Source: Alphaproteobacteria bacterium (GTDB lineage Bacteria; Pseudomonadota; Alphaproteobacteria; UBA828). Taken from it: 64,000 nucleotides of DNA. Of the stretch, positions 30,835 to 35,553 are shown in pieces (within the stretch, counting starts at the first letter, position 1; every line of letters starts with the position of its first letter). Below the pieces are notes generated by a model. The model saw nothing but the letters and a program-made list of their open reading frames with translations. It did no database searches and had not been told where the DNA came from. A program made the translations under genes and the position numbers. The stretch is from assembly GCA_965220745.1 (NCBI GenBank), contig CBDCQT010000013.1:128001-192000 (forward strand), read 5' to 3'.

Positions 30835-31707
30835 GTGGCCACACAGCGACAGATCGAAGCCAACCGCCGAAACGCCCAGTCGAGCACCGGCCCGAAGACC
30901 GAGGCCGGCAAGGCCGCGTCGTCGGCAAACGCGCTCAGCCACGGCCTTACGGCCGCCGACAACGTGGTGCTGCCGGAGGAAAACCCCGATGAATTCGAGC
31001 GGCTCAGGGAGGGCGTGATCGCCGACCTCCAGCCGGCGGGCGCGCTGCAGGAGGCACTGGCGCATCGCGTCGCCGTGCTGCTCTGGCGACTCGACCGCGT
31101 CGCCCGGTTCGAAGCCGGGCTCTTCGTTCACGGCCAACTCACCGTGATACGCGACAGGGTGGGCGACCCGTTTCGTTCTTCAAGCATCTTGCAGGGTCTC
31201 GCCGACCTGCCGAAGGAGGTCACGCAGCTGCAGGAGAAGTGTGCACGGTTCAAGCGCAGGATCGACGAGGACATCCAGGCCCAGGCACCCTCCGCTCAGG
31301 TGCTGGTGGAGCGGCGCCAGAGTGCGCGCGCCTTCGACCAGATTGCGCGCCACGAGGCGATGCTGCAGCGGTCGCTGAACCGGACGCTGGACGAGTTTCG
31401 CCGCTTGCGCGACGCATCGGCTGCGGCAGCCGGATCGAAGGCGCCGCCGCCGGCCGCGCCGGCCGATCCCGACCCTGCGCCGGCTCGCGACGTTCCCCCG
31501 CCCGCGTCTGCGGGCCCGCAGCCCGATAGCGGCGAGGCCCAAGGCGAGGCCGGGCGCACGGGCGAAAAAGCGTTTTTGCAAAACGAAGCCAATTCAGCGC
31601 AAACGCCTGACCTGGAAGCCGATTCGAAAGCCGGTACGGAATCGCCGCAGGCCGGGACCGGAGGGCCGCCACTCCCAAGAACGGAACTCGCGCCAGGGCA
31701 CGATTAG
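30835..31707 (+). CDS. Uncharacterised protein with 'QIEANRRNAQSSTGPKT..GK..S..NA..HGL' N-terminus
   Basis: GTG after AAAGGAG; conserved-looking basic N-terminus, helical core, Pro/Ala-rich tail with LQNEAN. Confidence 0.75.
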   Translation: MATQRQIEANRRNAQSSTGPKTEAGKAASSANALSHGLTAADNVVLPEENPDEFERLREGVIADLQPAGALQEALAHRVAVLLWRLDRVARFEAGLFVHGQLTVIRDRVGDPFRSSSILQGLADLPKEVTQLQEKCARFKRRIDEDIQAQAPSAQVLVERRQSARAFDQIARHEAMLQRSLNRTLDEFRRLRDASAAAAGSKAPPPAAPADPDPAPARDVPPPASAGPQPDSGEAQGEAGRTGEKAFLQNEANSAQTPDLEADSKAGTESPQAGTGGPPLPRTELAPGHD

Positions 31708-31738
31708 ACCTTACCTGATCGCTGCAGCCCGAAGAGCG

Positions 31739-31830
31739 CCCACCTCCCGCTGTCCCCTCCTAAACTTGTACGTTTCCCTCAGTCGGCGGGCGCTCGCATC
31801 ACGCGCCCGCGCGCGTGTGGCCGCGCGACG
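31739..31830. repeat. Left part of REP-like element interrupted by the IS
   Basis: CCCACCTCCCGCTGTCCCCTCC pairs with GGAGGGGGGACAGGGGGAGGTGGG near 33400-33422; inner TTCCCTCAG..GGGCGCTCGC. Confidence 0.75.
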
Positions 31831-31904
31831 CTCTGATGTCCTTCGTCAAGCAAGAGTTCGAACGGACCTATCAAGCGCCAAGCGGCGCCTGAGTTTCGCA
31901 AGTC

Positions 31905-32089
31905 GCGCGCATAGCGGTGGGAACGCGGCCCAGGACGTTGGTGAACAAGCTCTGATGCGCGGGTCGAGACCGCATGTCCGTGTCTGCGTCCGGGGCTGGT
32001 CCTGTCTCGCATCGGGCGTCGGCGATGCCGGCCACAAAGCGTCGTCGGGAGTTCCCCCGTCGTTGCCGCGTCCCCGCCGCTATGCGCGC
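31905..32089 (-). ncRNA. Predicted bridge/seek RNA of the IS110 element
   Basis: 25-bp closing stem 31905-31929/32065-32089 enclosing four segments that match target and donor flanks. Confidence 0.75.
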
Positions 32090-32113
32090 TATGGGCGATC
32101 GCTCTCCCTCGGA

Positions 32114-33226
32114 TCAGTTCGCCGCAGGCTCCATGCGCGCGATCGCCCACATGAAGCCGACCAGCTCACGGGCCACGGCGGTGACCGCGACCGTGCTGCG
32201 CTTTCCTCGTGCGCACAGCGCGCGGTAGCGCCTGGTCAGGCGCGCCTGTGCTTTCCATGCCACCTCCTGGACGTCCTGCGGCAGATGTCTCGTCGCGAAG
32301 TATTTCTTCCTTCCCACCGCCGCAGGATGGCGGTAGGCCCAGGCGCTCTCCGCCAACACGTGGCGCACCCGTGCGTTGCCGGCCCTGGTGATGCCGCCGC
32401 GCCGAACGCTCTCGCCCGTCGAGCGCTCACAGGGCACGAGGCCGAGATAAGCCATCAGCCGCCGAGGATGCTCGAAGCGACGGATGTCGCCGACCTCCAC
32501 CATGAAAGTGACCGCCGTAATCAGGCCGACCCCGCGCAGCGCCTGAAGGCGGTCCACCGCTTGAGCCAGCGGCCAGTCGAGCAGGGCGTCTTCGATCGCT
32601 CCTTCCAGCCGCGCGACGCGCTCGCGCTCCTGTCTCTCGGCCGCGATCATCTCGTGCAGCACGACTTTCTGGGCGGGCCAGTCGAAGCTGAGCTCGTGGA
32701 GCCAGGCCATGTGCCTGGGGCCCCACGCCTTCTTGCCAGCGTAGACCCTGCCATGACGCAGCAGGAAGGAGCGGATCTCCTGGCGCTTGCGGGTGCGGTC
32801 TCTCACCGCCGCCTCGCGGGCGCGCACGAGATCGCGCATCGCTTCATGGGCCTCGTCCGGTGTCCAGATCTCGGTCAGCTCGCCGGCCCGGAACAGGCGT
32901 ACCAGCTTCACGGCGTCGCGGCGGTTCGTCTTCACCCGCTCACCGGGCCGGCGCGGGATCAGGGACGGTGCGATGACGGCGCAGTCGTGTCCGAGCCCCT
33001 CGATCAGACGCTTCAGCCCGTAGCCCGTCGGGCCGGCCTCGTAGCAGAAGTGCAGCCGTGCGCCTGGCCGCTCGAGCTTGCGCACGAAACGACGGACGGC
33101 AGCCGCATCCGAGGCGATCTCGCCGAAATACCTGACCTCACCATCGCGTCCGCCTTCCGCCACCGCGACGGCGTGGCTGTCCTTCGACACGTCCAATCCG
33201 ATGAAAACCTCGCTATAGTCGACCAT
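32114..33226 (-). CDS. IS110 family transposase/recombinase
   Basis: FIGLDVSK, CYEAGPTGY, RVKTNRRDA RuvC-like domain; LRGVG, YLGLVP.ERSTG, GGITRAGN, AVARELVGF. Confidence 0.96.
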   Translation of the reverse strand: MVDYSEVFIGLDVSKDSHAVAVAEGGRDGEVRYFGEIASDAAAVRRFVRKLERPGARLHFCYEAGPTGYGLKRLIEGLGHDCAVIAPSLIPRRPGERVKTNRRDAVKLVRLFRAGELTEIWTPDEAHEAMRDLVRAREAAVRDRTRKRQEIRSFLLRHGRVYAGKKAWGPRHMAWLHELSFDWPAQKVVLHEMIAAERQERERVARLEGAIEDALLDWPLAQAVDRLQALRGVGLITAVTFMVEVGDIRRFEHPRRLMAYLGLVPCERSTGESVRRGGITRAGNARVRHVLAESAWAYRHPAAVGRKKYFATRHLPQDVQEVAWKAQARLTRRYRALCARGKRSTVAVTAVARELVGFMWAIARMEPAAN

Positions 33227-33334
33227 GGTTCGCCCTCCTGGCTTGAGGCCCTGCTCACTGAGCAACCCTCGTTGAGATCAGCCAGTGTAGGGCGAACCGC
33301 CCCGCACCAGCCGGACCAGAAGGACATACGGTCT

Positions 33335-33425
33335 CGCTTGCCTACGCGCTTACGCGCGCGGCGCAGTCGCGCCGTCCGGGCCTGCGGCCCGGCATGGCGG
33401 AGGGGGGACAGGGGGAGGTGGGGCC
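33335..33425. repeat. Right part of REP-like element interrupted by the IS
   Basis: CGCTTGCCTACGCGC..GCGCAGTCGCGC..CCGGGCCTGCGGCCCGG resembles 27804-27867; ends in G-rich outer arm. Confidence 0.75.
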
Positions 33426-33433
33426 CCGAAGGA

Positions 33434-34543
33434 TCAGCCGAGGCGTTCGTCGATCAGCCGGTTCACCTCTGTGGCGGCCTCCATCTGCACCATGTGGCCC
33501 TGGCCCTCCATCACCGTGCAGTCCACGCCGTCCGGCAGGCCGTCGGCGTGGGAGGCTGGGATGATCTGGTCGCCCGCGCCCCAGATGACGAGCGTGGGCA
33601 CACTGCCCGCCACGTCGCGCATCGCCTCGGCCTGGGCGCCGCCGGGCGCGAAGGCGTCCCGCACCGTGCTGAGCGCGGCGGTGACCCCGTCGATCCGCTT
33701 GAAGGCGAGCAGGTCGTTGATGAGCTGGCGGGTCACCAGCGCCGGGTCGCTGAACAGCTTCTCGACGTGGGGCTTGAGGTCCTTCCGGCGCTCGGCCGAG
33801 ATGAAGCCCTCCAGATAGTCCCCGTCGATGTCGCTGCCGAGGCCGGCGCTGCCGATCAGGGTGATCGATGCCACACGCTCCGGTGCCGCGCGGGCCACGG
33901 CAAGCGCGATGGCGCCGCCCATGGAGTGGCCGACGAGATGGGCCTGCTCGATTTCCAAGGCGTCGGCGAAGCCGGTGACGATATCGGCGAAGAAGCCGAT
34001 GGAGCCGTCGCCCACGTCCTTGCTGGAGCTGCCGTGCCCCGGCAGGTCGAGGGCATGGACAACCCGCTTGGCGGCGAGGGCCTCGTGGTTGAACAGCCAG
34101 TTGTTGAGGTCGCCGCCGAAGCCGTGGATCAGGATGACCGGCGTGCCGCCTTCGCCCCGCGTGAGGTAGCGGATCGTCCGCCCGGCGACTTCCACCGACT
34201 CGGTCGCCGGGCCGCCATCCTCATCGTCATCCTCGGGCGGCACGAAGTTCGCCTGAAAGTCGGTGACGAAGGCGTCGATATCGGCGTCGGCGACGCTCTC
34301 GTCGGCGACGATGCCGAGCAGGCCGCCGACCGGCAGCACGTCGCCCTCCTGGGCGACGCAGCGGCGGAGCGTGCCCGCGTCCGCCGCCTCGACCGCGCTG
34401 GAGATCTTCTCGGTCTCGATGTCGATGATCTCATCGCCCGGCGTGATCGAATCGCCCTCATCCACAAGCCATCCGGCCACCTTCCCCTCCTTCATGGAGA
34501 GGCCCCATTTGGGCATGCAAACGGTGCGGATGCCCTCGCTCAT
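33434..34543 (-). CDS. acoC: Acetoin dehydrogenase E2-type subunit (lipoyl domain + alpha/beta hydrolase)
   Basis: MPKWGLSM, IETEKI lipoyl-Lys, IHGFGGD, GHSMGG, GHMVQME. Confidence 0.92.
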   Translation of the reverse strand: MSEGIRTVCMPKWGLSMKEGKVAGWLVDEGDSITPGDEIIDIETEKISSAVEAADAGTLRRCVAQEGDVLPVGGLLGIVADESVADADIDAFVTDFQANFVPPEDDDEDGGPATESVEVAGRTIRYLTRGEGGTPVILIHGFGGDLNNWLFNHEALAAKRVVHALDLPGHGSSSKDVGDGSIGFFADIVTGFADALEIEQAHLVGHSMGGAIALAVARAAPERVASITLIGSAGLGSDIDGDYLEGFISAERRKDLKPHVEKLFSDPALVTRQLINDLLAFKRIDGVTAALSTVRDAFAPGGAQAEAMRDVAGSVPTLVIWGAGDQIIPASHADGLPDGVDCTVMEGQGHMVQMEAATEVNRLIDERLG

Positions 34544-35553
34544 TTGCTGGACTCCATCACCGCCTTCACGGCCTTCTGCACCGCCGCGGCGTCGGGGATG
34601 TAGAGATCCTCGAGCGTATCCGAGAACGGCACCGGCGTGTGCGGGGCGGTCACCTGCTTGATCGGCCCCTTGAGGGAATCGAAGGCCTTTTCGCAGACCA
34701 TCGCCGCGATGTCGGTGGCCATGTTGCAGCGCGGGTGCGCCTCGTCCAGCACCACCAGGCGGCCGGTGTTTTCCACGGTCTCGATCACGGTGTCCTCGTC
34801 GAGCGGCGAGGTCGTGCGCAGGTCGACGATCTCGCACTCGATGCCGTCGTTGGCGAGCGCGTTCGCCGCCTCAGCCGCGACATGAACCATGCGGCCCAGC
34901 GTCACGATCGAGACGTCGTCGCCCTCGCGCACGATGTTGGCCTCGCCGAAGGGGAGCGCATAGGGCTCCTCCGGCACGTCGCCTTCAAGGGTGTAGAGCC
35001 CCTTGTGCTCGCAGAAGATCACCGGGTCGTTGTCGCGGATCGCCTGGATCAGCAGCCCCTTGGCATCGTAGGGCGTCGCCGGGGTTACGACCTTGAGCCC
35101 GGGGATGTGGGTGAACACCGGATAGAGGCACTGCGAGTGCTGGGCGGCAGCGCGCAGCCCGGCGCCGTACATGGTGCGGATCACCACCGGCGTCTCGGCC
35201 TTGCCGCCGAACATGTAGCGGAACTTCGCCGCCTGGTTGAATATCTGGTCGAAGCAGACGCCCATGAAGTCGATGAACATCAACTCCGCCACCGGGCGGA
35301 GGCCCGCGGTCGCCGCGCCCACGGCGGCGCCGATGAACGCGGATTCGCTGATCGGGGTGTCCATCACCCGATCGCCGTACTTGCCGTAAAGCCCCTTGGT
35401 GATGCCGAGCGGGCCGCCCCAGGCGTCGCGCTCGCCGTCGGTGCCGAGCCCGCCGGCCACGTCCTCGCCCATGACGACGACGGTCTCGTCGCGCTCCATC
35501 TCCTGCGCGAGGGCTTCGTTGATCGCCTGCTGGTAGGTCGCTGTGCGTGCCAT
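34540..35553 (-). CDS. acoB: Acetoin dehydrogenase E1 beta
   Basis: DAWGG, DTPISE, NQAAKFRYMFGGKA, AAQHSQ. Confidence 0.93.
   Translation of the reverse strand: MARTATYQQAINEALAQEMERDETVVVMGEDVAGGLGTDGERDAWGGPLGITKGLYGKYGDRVMDTPISESAFIGAAVGAATAGLRPVAELMFIDFMGVCFDQIFNQAAKFRYMFGGKAETPVVIRTMYGAGLRAAAQHSQCLYPVFTHIPGLKVVTPATPYDAKGLLIQAIRDNDPVIFCEHKGLYTLEGDVPEEPYALPFGEANIVREGDDVSIVTLGRMVHVAAEAANALANDGIECEIVDLRTTSPLDEDTVIETVENTGRLVVLDEAHPRCNMATDIAAMVCEKAFDSLKGPIKQVTAPHTPVPFSDTLEDLYIPDAAAVQKAVKAVMESSK

Follow-up and report, generated by a model that had tools for sequence, protein, structure and literature searches.

An IS110-family insertion sequence of IS1111-type layout in an Alphaproteobacterium and the bridge/seek RNA that it very probably encodes

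A 64,000-nucleotide stretch of the genome of an Alphaproteobacteria bacterium (assembly GCA_965220745.1, contig CBDCQT010000013.1, positions 128,001 to 192,000; the whole stretch is referred to as the window) contains an insertion sequence (IS) of the IS110 family with a recombinase gene on the minus strand (table 1). The gene is followed by 283 bp of non-coding DNA within the element and preceded by 108 bp, the sub-terminal inverted repeats are 9 bp long and a CT core dinucleotide is present at both junctions. Read from the gene-start end, the element consists of a short left end, a gene for a RuvC-like/Tnp recombinase of 370 amino acids, and a 283-bp non-coding right end predicted to encode a structured RNA of approximately 167–185 nt on the gene strand, in which an outer stem encloses a target module and a donor module. 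Overall, the locus is very probably an IS110-family element of IS1111-type layout that carries a bridge/seek RNA guiding the recognition of its own target and donor. A previous interpretation made from the letters alone (the sequence-only reading) had assigned four guide segments to this RNA: a left-target guide (LTG), a right-target guide (RTG), a left-donor guide (LDG), together with a right-donor guide (RDG). Among homologous elements, both target guides and the right-donor guide covary with the DNA that they would contact, and the left-donor guide does not.

Table 1. Coordinates of the element and its features within the window
Feature	Position	Strand	Basis
Whole insertion sequence, CT core counted at both junctions	31831..33334	-	1504 bp; three copies, empty site, contig joint
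Core dinucleotide CT, junction beside non-coding end (AG on gene strand)	31831..31832	+	Sequence, copies, empty site
Core dinucleotide CT, junction beside gene start	33333..33334	+	Sequence, copies, empty site
Sub-terminal inverted repeat, non-coding end, GAAGGACAU	31836..31844	-	Sequence
Sub-terminal inverted repeat, gene-start end, AUGUCCUUC	33319..33327	-	Sequence
Recombinase/transposase gene, 370 amino acids	32114..33226	-	Open reading frame; PF01548, PF02371, NF033542; motif alignment
Predicted bridge/seek RNA core, 167 nt, match to covariance model R1	31914..32080	-	Fold, model, covariation; outer stem extends to 31905-32089
5' strand of target-binding internal loop, GACGACGCUU, holds CGACGCU	32037..32046	-	Consensus structure, flank covariation
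Capping stem-loop P3 of target-binding loop	32013..32036	-	Compensatory changes in 7/9 pairs
3' strand of target-binding internal loop, AUGCGAGACA, holds GCGAG	32003..32012	-	Consensus structure, flank covariation
Donor-binding multiloop, closed by P4 (31991-31987/31937-31933) and P5 (31980-31978/31941-31939)	31933..31991	-	Consensus structure
Candidate left-donor guide (LDG), GGACAUGCGGUCU	31967..31979	-	13 pairs with gene-strand AG+accgtatgtcc, gene-start end
Small hairpin GCGG-UCUCGAC-CCGC inside donor loop	31959..31973	-	24-sequence comparison
Right-donor guide (RDG), CAUCAGAG	31950..31957	-	Identical to last 6 nt of non-coding end plus core, gene strand
TTGACG, -35-like hexamer	31844..31849	-	Sequence; TTGAC conserved at this end in homologues
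REP-like (repetitive extragenic palindrome-like) extragenic repeat flank, target at its edge	33335..33409	.	Flank blastn against the genome, ~35 copies

On the plus strand the left junction reads cgacg-CT-ctgatg (31826-31838) and the right junction ggacatacggt-CT-cgcttg (33322-33340). Both junctions, as well as the four RNA segments, were recovered where the sequence-only reading had placed them, by direct reading and by re-extraction with a script. The genome (13 contigs, 4.82 Mb) contains three copies of the element, and the ends of the other copies, on which the proposed boundaries could have failed, are identical to those of the window copy. The second copy (L002) is located on the same contig as the window copy and differs from it by 1 nt in 1504. 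The third (L003, C10:219811-221307) is located on another contig, is 95% identical and is a predicted pseudogene because an 8-bp deletion inside the RRDA codons shifts the frame at the fourth catalytic residue. CT is found on both sides of all three copies, with the flanks gcgcgacg/cgcttgcc (window copy), tcaaaccg/cgcccgat (L002), and tcacgccg/tgcccgat (L003). The empty target with a single CT that had been deduced for the window copy exists in a genome of the same genus (G011): the element is absent from the orthologous locus (L065, 96% identity) and the uninterrupted site reads ...gtggccgcgcgac-a-CT-cgcttgcctacgcgc..., one base apart from the left flank in the window (a for g adjoining the core). 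It follows from the single CT of this empty site that the insertion adds 1502 bp and that the ends lie where the sequence-only reading had drawn them. Furthermore, one contig in each of two public sequencing runs (X4 and X5) joins position 31830 to 33333 and skips the element (sides of 67 and 30 letters); the evidence from public runs consists of assembled contigs, and the uncovered parts in a further run (X20) were left uninterpreted. The element is, as judged from its copies and its empty site, real and mobile; the near-identical copies together with the empty site point to recent movement, and the window copy is probably the newest insertion because at element position 44 it has a derived base that sets it apart from L002 and L003, which are alike there.

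The recombinase matches the Pfam domains PF01548 (1.5e-14, 54.5 bits) and PF02371 (2.7e-22, 79.4 bits) and the NCBIfam model NF033542, "IS110 family RNA-guided transposase" (254.7 bits with a cut-off of 140; residues 8-364 on profile positions 1-339 of 343). Four motifs were identified by alignment (FIGLDVSKD, FCYEAGPTGY, KTNRRDA, and GLVPCERSTG), the last of which provides the C-terminal G--P----S/T-G motif. The DEDD tetrad is incomplete: the first D (FIGLDVS), the E (YEAGP), and the fourth D (RRDA) are kept and the third position is occupied by N (KTN, in GERVKTNRRDAVKLV). The sequence-only reading had singled out this KTN for the usual KTD as a feature of the enzyme. The substitution is indeed present but it is not peculiar to this copy, being the norm of the clade: KTN was found in 117 of the 120 nearest 90%-identity protein clusters (one has KTD and two lack a motif match), and the KTN clusters encode proteins of intact length (~370 amino acids). 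Similarly, TG is present in 116 of these 120 clusters at the position where other family members have SG; TG at this motif of the Tnp domain has been described for IS1111 transposases (PMC11187229). Because of its presence in 117 of 120 clusters, KTN is best regarded as a conserved, clade-wide variant and as neither damage nor an oddity of one copy. We infer from the clade-wide substitution, the two near-identical copies, and the empty site in a relative that the KTN enzyme is functional.

The minimum free energy fold of the non-coding end (31833-32113, minus strand) has -132.1 kcal/mol (z = -4.4) and none of 200 shuffled sequences was as stable. The stem of 25 bp that had been proposed to enclose the four segments (31905-31929/32065-32089) was recovered in this fold as 24 pairs and one bulge; all four guide segments lie inside it and 12 of its pairs belong to the helix P1 that is supported by covariation. 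A consensus structure was derived with RNAalifold from 11 non-coding ends of relatives (57-96% protein identity). It consists of the outer helix P1, a target module (P2 and P2b with an internal loop of 10 x 10 nt that is capped by hairpin P3), and a donor module in which P4 and P5 close a 36-nt loop. Guides that fold into stems had been named by the sequence-only reading as evidence against it, and this holds in part: the two target guides and CAUCAGAG are located in loops, the latter unpaired in the donor loop, and of the left-donor segment 2 nt fall into P5 and 4 nt into a covarying hairpin. A covariance model (R1) built from 10 sequences, with 35 pairs and the guide regions left unpaired, gave full-length matches in 35 out of 59 sources. 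All of these are on the gene strand and downstream (3') of the gene, and they extend to relatives of 43-50% protein identity within Paenibacillus, the Acidobacteriota, the Planctomycetota, and the Actinomycetota. In the alignment to R1 (31 distinct rows), 93.4% of the cells are paired (70.0% after shuffling), 31 of the 35 pairs show a compensatory change, and 228 cells are changed on both sides (62 after shuffling), figures that have to be read with the reservation that the alignment was fitted to the structure of the model, which favours that structure. None of 500 shuffles matched the observed values on any of five measures, and in slid controls, in which the partner was moved by 1-3 columns, 40-48% of the cells were paired. 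Three copies of the RNA are present in the genome, all of them within the IS copies.

The first target guide (CGACGCU, 32044-32038, minus strand) is complementary to gene-strand AG+cgtcg, the flank beside the non-coding end, and the second (GCGAG, 32010-32006, minus strand) is identical to gene-strand gcg+AG, the flank beside the gene start. That guides and flanks should change together among homologues had been anticipated by the sequence-only reading, and the comparison bore this out. The element ends in the relatives were defined without using either target-guide segment: the gene-start ends were set by a conserved spacing (core, 5 nt, ATG, and sub-terminal repeat), a rule that was checked on multi-copy genomes (L019-L021 and L025/L030) and on the three copies described here, and the non-coding ends were set by the repeat of the right-donor segment. 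A total of 18 elements with distinct guides or sites were included (L002, L003, L019, L021, and L025 were dropped as guide duplicates). The longest core-anchored match of the first guide to its own flank averaged 5.67 nt, compared with 2.36 nt for non-cognate flanks (18 elements), and that of the second guide 5.0 nt, compared with 2.66 nt (16 elements with a flank of at least 6 nt); for each target guide, none of 20000 flank permutations reached the observed sum. For L020 and L027 the first guide scores 0, as its core part is mismatched in both. Compensatory cases include CGAAUGCU with AGcattcg in L035, AGCAATC with AGcaatc in L012, and AGAAAGCA with AGaaagca in L052, and the guides UUGAACU and UUAAGCU of L024 and L026 track the flanks ttcaa and cttaa, respectively. 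L010 has the junction gtaTG|accg, and a TG is found in its second target guide (GUAUG) as well as in its right-donor guide (CAUCAGUG). Across the relatives, the target guides occupy the same loop columns of the covarying structure. An additional guide in another register was considered and rejected: a 10-nt segment just 5' of GCGAG (CGCCCGAUGC) is complementary to the flank of L002 and L003, a match that is probably coincidental because the segment forms the 3' strand of P3 and is conserved in relatives with unrelated targets.

A metagenome-assembled genome of the Bryobacterales contains four copies of a related element (L018, L019, L020, and L021), and two of the copies L019, L020, and L021 have the core AA at the junction with the non-coding end and one has AG. 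At the core position, UU is present in the first target guide of this element and AG in both the second target guide and the donor guide, so that the core part of the guides is not uniform within one RNA. The flank of L021 contains repeated copies of the element's own end sequence (gctccatatcag).

In 14 out of 14 elements examined, the right-donor segment shows an identity of 7-8 nt to the non-coding end, made up of the terminal 5-6 nt of that end and the core, and the segment varies in step with this end: it reads CAUAAGAG in L012 and L013, (N)AUAUCAG in a distant group, and AUAGCAG in L052. The candidate left-donor segment, GGACAUGCGGUCU, forms 13 pairs with the gene-start end in the window copy and in L005, and 12 in L006 and L008. 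The 12/13 identity to the left donor that had been noted for it is correct, and the sole difference is an RNA G opposite a bottom-strand T, that is, a wobble.

The claim of the sequence-only reading that the RNA guides the recognition of both the target and the donor therefore stands for three segments on the evidence of covariation, and for the left donor an alternative has to be weighed. It is conceivable, although we consider it unlikely, that the RNA guides recognition of the target on both sides and of one end only, that the gene-start end is read by the protein through the 9-bp repeat, and that the 13-nt match arises incidentally from a structural hairpin and from sequence that it has in common with the repeat. 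A number of observations are in line with this alternative and count against a complete set of four guides. Beyond the closest relatives the left-end complementarity is at background, with 7 pairs in L035, 6 in L010, and 4-6 at unrelated places in 12 others, and the left-end match is 4-7 nt long in 16 out of 20 elements, L012 and L013 included. A terminus-anchored search of the whole non-coding end covered 15 elements and gave 12-13 nt in three of them and 4-7 nt in the remaining 12, where non-cognate pairings of RNA and end range from 4 to 10 nt over 182 comparisons, and nothing above this non-cognate background was found when a left-donor guide was sought elsewhere in the non-coding end of distant relatives. 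L012 keeps the end accgtatgtcc yet has lost most of the match, and in the relatives that have the match both end and guide are invariant, so that they provide no covariation. Moreover, the first two nucleotides (GG) of the segment lie in helix P5, nucleotides 7-10 (GCGG, 31973-31970) pair with CCGC (31962-31959) in the stem of a hairpin, and GGACAU is the sequence of the sub-terminal repeat itself. The four pairs of this hairpin are never broken among 24 sequences, one of them covarying (CG in 18, UA in 5, GC in 1) and three being invariant. According to the available portions of Siddiquee et al. (PMC11187229), end recognition may differ in IS1111-type elements. On the other hand, the 13 consecutive pairs of the window copy, core included, exceed all 182 non-cognate comparisons, and the match shares with IS621 its register relative to the core and is preserved in each of the four close relatives examined. 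Durrant et al. (PMC11208160), in the portions available, report that many IS1111 orthologues carry their donor-binding nucleotides in a multiloop instead of a simple internal loop, which fits the architecture predicted here. The left-donor match is thus far above chance within the close clade, without covariation and partly overlapping conserved helices. A wider form of the same idea, to which we likewise give only a modest chance, is that throughout a large, mostly alphaproteobacterial clade with the Asn and Thr-Gly variants the RNA directs three of the four DNA contacts, the protein reads the gene-start end via the repeat, and the apparent left-donor guide is a hairpin that needs to stay folded. 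If this were true, the RNA would represent a hybrid of RNA-guided and protein-guided end recognition.

Apart from the fitted alignment mentioned above, the remaining points against a guide RNA of the proposed kind concern the RNA as such and the choice of sites. No Rfam family matched within 31500-33700 (E-value mode), so that the RNA belongs to none of the curated families in the release used, and a scan of the integrated element (31700-33500) identified neither sigma-70-like promoters nor intrinsic terminators. The sole evidence from an RNA library is one contig of the metatranscriptome run X20 that covers 31829-32123 with four differences; it may represent DNA carry-over, and assembled contigs cannot show transcription. 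The sequence-only reading held that the specificity of the element can be read off directly, which is an overstatement, since the window copy alone among the three genomic copies matches all 7 + 5 guide positions. L002 has the same guides and is inserted at gggcgAG|cggtttg (gene strand), where 4 of 7 positions agree with the first guide and all 5 with the second. For L003, the contiguous match extends over four positions of its first guide (7 of 8 with one mismatch) and over two of its second (4 of 5 plus a wobble). The genome contains 87 occurrences of the 10-nt motif cgacg-CT-cgc, compared with ~42 expected from composition, and none of these perfect sites is occupied. Matches of 7 and 5 nt are weak on their own at 67% G+C, and with a 10-nt site as frequent as this, the non-coding end might be taken for a mere structured 3' untranslated region or terminator that matches its target by chance. 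We regard this as extremely improbable, since the flank permutations over 18 elements contradict it for each target guide and the guides keep to the same loop columns of a covarying structure. A decaying relic, in which Asn in place of the third catalytic Asp inactivates the enzyme and the guide matches are fossils, would agree with the Asp that is found at this position in 26 of 39 aligned homologues and with the deletion in the RRDA codons of L003. Such decay is nevertheless a highly improbable explanation, given that KTN is the rule among the nearest clusters of intact length and is found in 12 of the 39 aligned loci, different bacterial orders included (the window copy, L005-L012, L035, and L032 among them), that two copies differ by a single nucleotide, and that a genome of the same genus retains the empty site. 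The element is thus still best read as a mobile IS with a bridge/seek RNA, in which the relation between guide match and occupied site is loose.

The sites themselves belong to two families of genomic repeats. The target of the window copy is at the edge of a REP-like repeat with a typical sequence of ...gcgcgtag(g/c)caagcgag|cggagcgagcgccc...tgagggaaat (33335-33409 and 31739-31830 in the window). Most of the ~35 members of this family read gcgAG|cggag and match the first guide at only four positions. The right part of the site in the window is a different module (cgtcgcgcggccac...) that is also seen at a few other places, and the site looks like a hybrid of two repeat variants. The flanks of the window copy form a long inverted repeat (31738-31760 and 33400-33425). 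L002 and L003 are inserted into a second family of ~17 copies (200-280 bp, e.g., C10:417358-417555 and C11:646907-647103), several members of which are uninterrupted exactly at the core, and a 96% identical element in another genome (L005) occupies the same position of this family. The 10 nt adjoining the core in this family (gcatcgggcg) are complementary to the 3' strand of P3 (CGCCCGAUGC), probably by coincidence. The first target guide is CGGCGCU in L003, the older copy, and CGACGCU in L002 and the window copy, and the site of the window copy fits the changed base. This single case is suggestive of a natural one-base retargeting recorded by the window copy.

Based on work on IS621 and ISEc11, excision of the element would yield a circle that joins its two ends through a single CT. 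In this circular form, TTGACG (31849-31844) would be located 17 nt upstream of TATGTC (33328-33323), and the TTGAC at the non-coding end and a TA-rich hexamer at the other end are conserved across the family. TTGACG-17-TATGTC would accordingly constitute a promoter created at the circle junction, from which first the gene and then the RNA would be transcribed; circle-junction promoters that would also transcribe the non-coding region have been described (PMC11187229, in the portions available). In the target module of the processed RNA, CGACGCU would pair with one target strand on one side of the CT core and GCGAG with the other strand on the other side, and in the donor multiloop CAUCAGAG would pair with one element end plus the core and, in this clade, GGACAUGCGGUCU could pair with the other. 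The complex of RNA and protein would then align the circle junction with the target cgacg-CT-cgc, and the catalytic step, a strand exchange at the core, would take place without target duplication.

Some further features lie next to the element or elsewhere in the genome. The neighbouring gene (33434-34837, minus strand) ends 100 bp from the element; judged by eye, its product resembles a lipoyl-domain protein fused to an alpha/beta hydrolase, similar to acetoin dehydrogenase E2. An open frame of 945 amino acids (31766-34603, plus strand) runs antisense through the whole element and this neighbouring gene and is an artefact of high G+C content and not a gene. The genome also contains a different, fourth IS110-family transposase gene (C13:657362-657781, PF01548 54.8 bits, 370-amino-acid open frame), beside which model R1 found no RNA match.

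The element is a clean, fresh example of a guide-RNA system that has already been described, and it leaves the picture of the mechanism unchanged. It adds a well-delimited natural bridge/seek-RNA recombinase with exact ends, an empty site, an RNA backed by covariation, and guides that are reprogrammable on paper, from a clade that carries a conserved Asn in its catalytic tetrad. In practical terms, orthologues of this kind are of interest as candidates for programmable DNA insertion. Three aspects are of some note: the Asn and Thr variants are conserved, the left-donor guide is weak when the whole RNA family is considered, and guide match and site occupancy are only loosely related. These raise the questions of how ends are recognized in IS1111-type elements and of how many guide-target pairs are needed in vivo, on which the use of a 4/7 site by a copy with identical guides, while 87 perfect sites are empty, has a bearing.

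In its organization, the element shares all features of the IS1111 group considered here. The marks of this group that the sequence-only reading had listed, sub-terminal inverted repeats and a long non-coding region downstream of the transposase gene, are both present. According to the portions available of Durrant et al. (PMC11208160), the repeats of the group are 7-17 bp long and bridge RNAs are predicted in the right end of 93% of its elements; according to those of Siddiquee et al. (PMC11187229), the seekRNAs of four members are encoded 3' of tnp and were shown experimentally to be required and programmable. The order of the guides also agrees. If the gene and RNA strand is taken as the reference (core AG), the target guide in the 5' position is the complement of the gene strand and the one in the 3' position has the same sequence as that strand, which places the top-strand-complementary guide 5' of the bottom-strand-complementary guide. 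IS1111-type seekRNAs share this arrangement, which is opposite to that of the IS110 type (PMC11187229), and in IS621 it is the bottom strand with which the 5' guide pairs (PMC11208160). The LTG-RTG-LDG-RDG order that had been equated with that of IS621 consequently holds on the DNA strand opposite the RNA and gene, and relative to the gene it is the reversed, IS1111-type order; the element appears to be organized like IS621 with gene and RNA inverted relative to the CT core. The protein has a length of 370 amino acids, compared with the 330-350 quoted for IS1111 transposases, and 28% identity to an IS4321-family transposase over 64% of the query, so that assignment to the group by sequence is tentative.

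The closest parallels are found in systems with known guide RNAs, here as far as the available portions of the respective papers describe them. Similar to IS621 (Durrant et al. 2024, PMC11208160), the element has a DEDD-type RuvC/Tnp recombinase, a CT core in all guide pairings, a target internal loop with the longer guide on the 5' strand (7 nt here and 9 nt in IS621) and the shorter guide on the 3' strand (5 and 4 nt), a separate donor-binding module, and a REP-like target. It differs from IS621 in that the RNA is 3' and not 5' of the gene, the guide order is reversed relative to the gene strand (core AG), the donor module takes the form of a multiloop that includes a small hairpin (a simple internal loop in IS621), the sub-terminal repeats measure 9 bp (2-3 bp in IS621), and the active site carries KTN and TG. 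The IS1111-type seekRNA elements ISEc11, ISPa11, ISKpn4, and ISPst6 (Siddiquee et al. 2024, PMC11187229) share the non-coding region downstream of tnp, the sub-terminal inverted repeats, the GL-P----(S/T)G motif, and the top-strand-complementary match in the 5' position. The long form of the RNA is 148-172 nt in the ISEc11-type elements compared with the predicted 167-185 nt here, their promoter forms at the circle junction, as is suggested here by the position of the two hexamers, and their proteins have 330-350 amino acids, compared with 370 in the present element, which is known from its sequence.

A further relative is ISSso6 (NCBI annotation), located on a Shigella boydii plasmid, which displays 43% protein identity over 99% of the query and an R1 match 3' of its gene (59.1 bits, E = 4.6e-10). 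Its second target guide (CGUAAG) is identical to its left flank (cgtaAG), and its target differs from that of the window element, adjoining an IS66-family gene. Both ISSso6 and an element on a Mesorhizobium huakuii plasmid (L063) are located directly upstream of an IS66-family accessory gene pair, which suggests that the two elements target an IS66-family end. Finally, ISPpu9 of Pseudomonas putida with its RNA Ssr9 (PMC12288879, in the portions available) likewise belongs to the IS110 family, is inserted in REP sequences, and has a gene for a small RNA downstream of its transposase; it differs in having solo copies of the RNA gene elsewhere in its genome, whereas all three RNA copies described here are carried by the insertion sequence itself.

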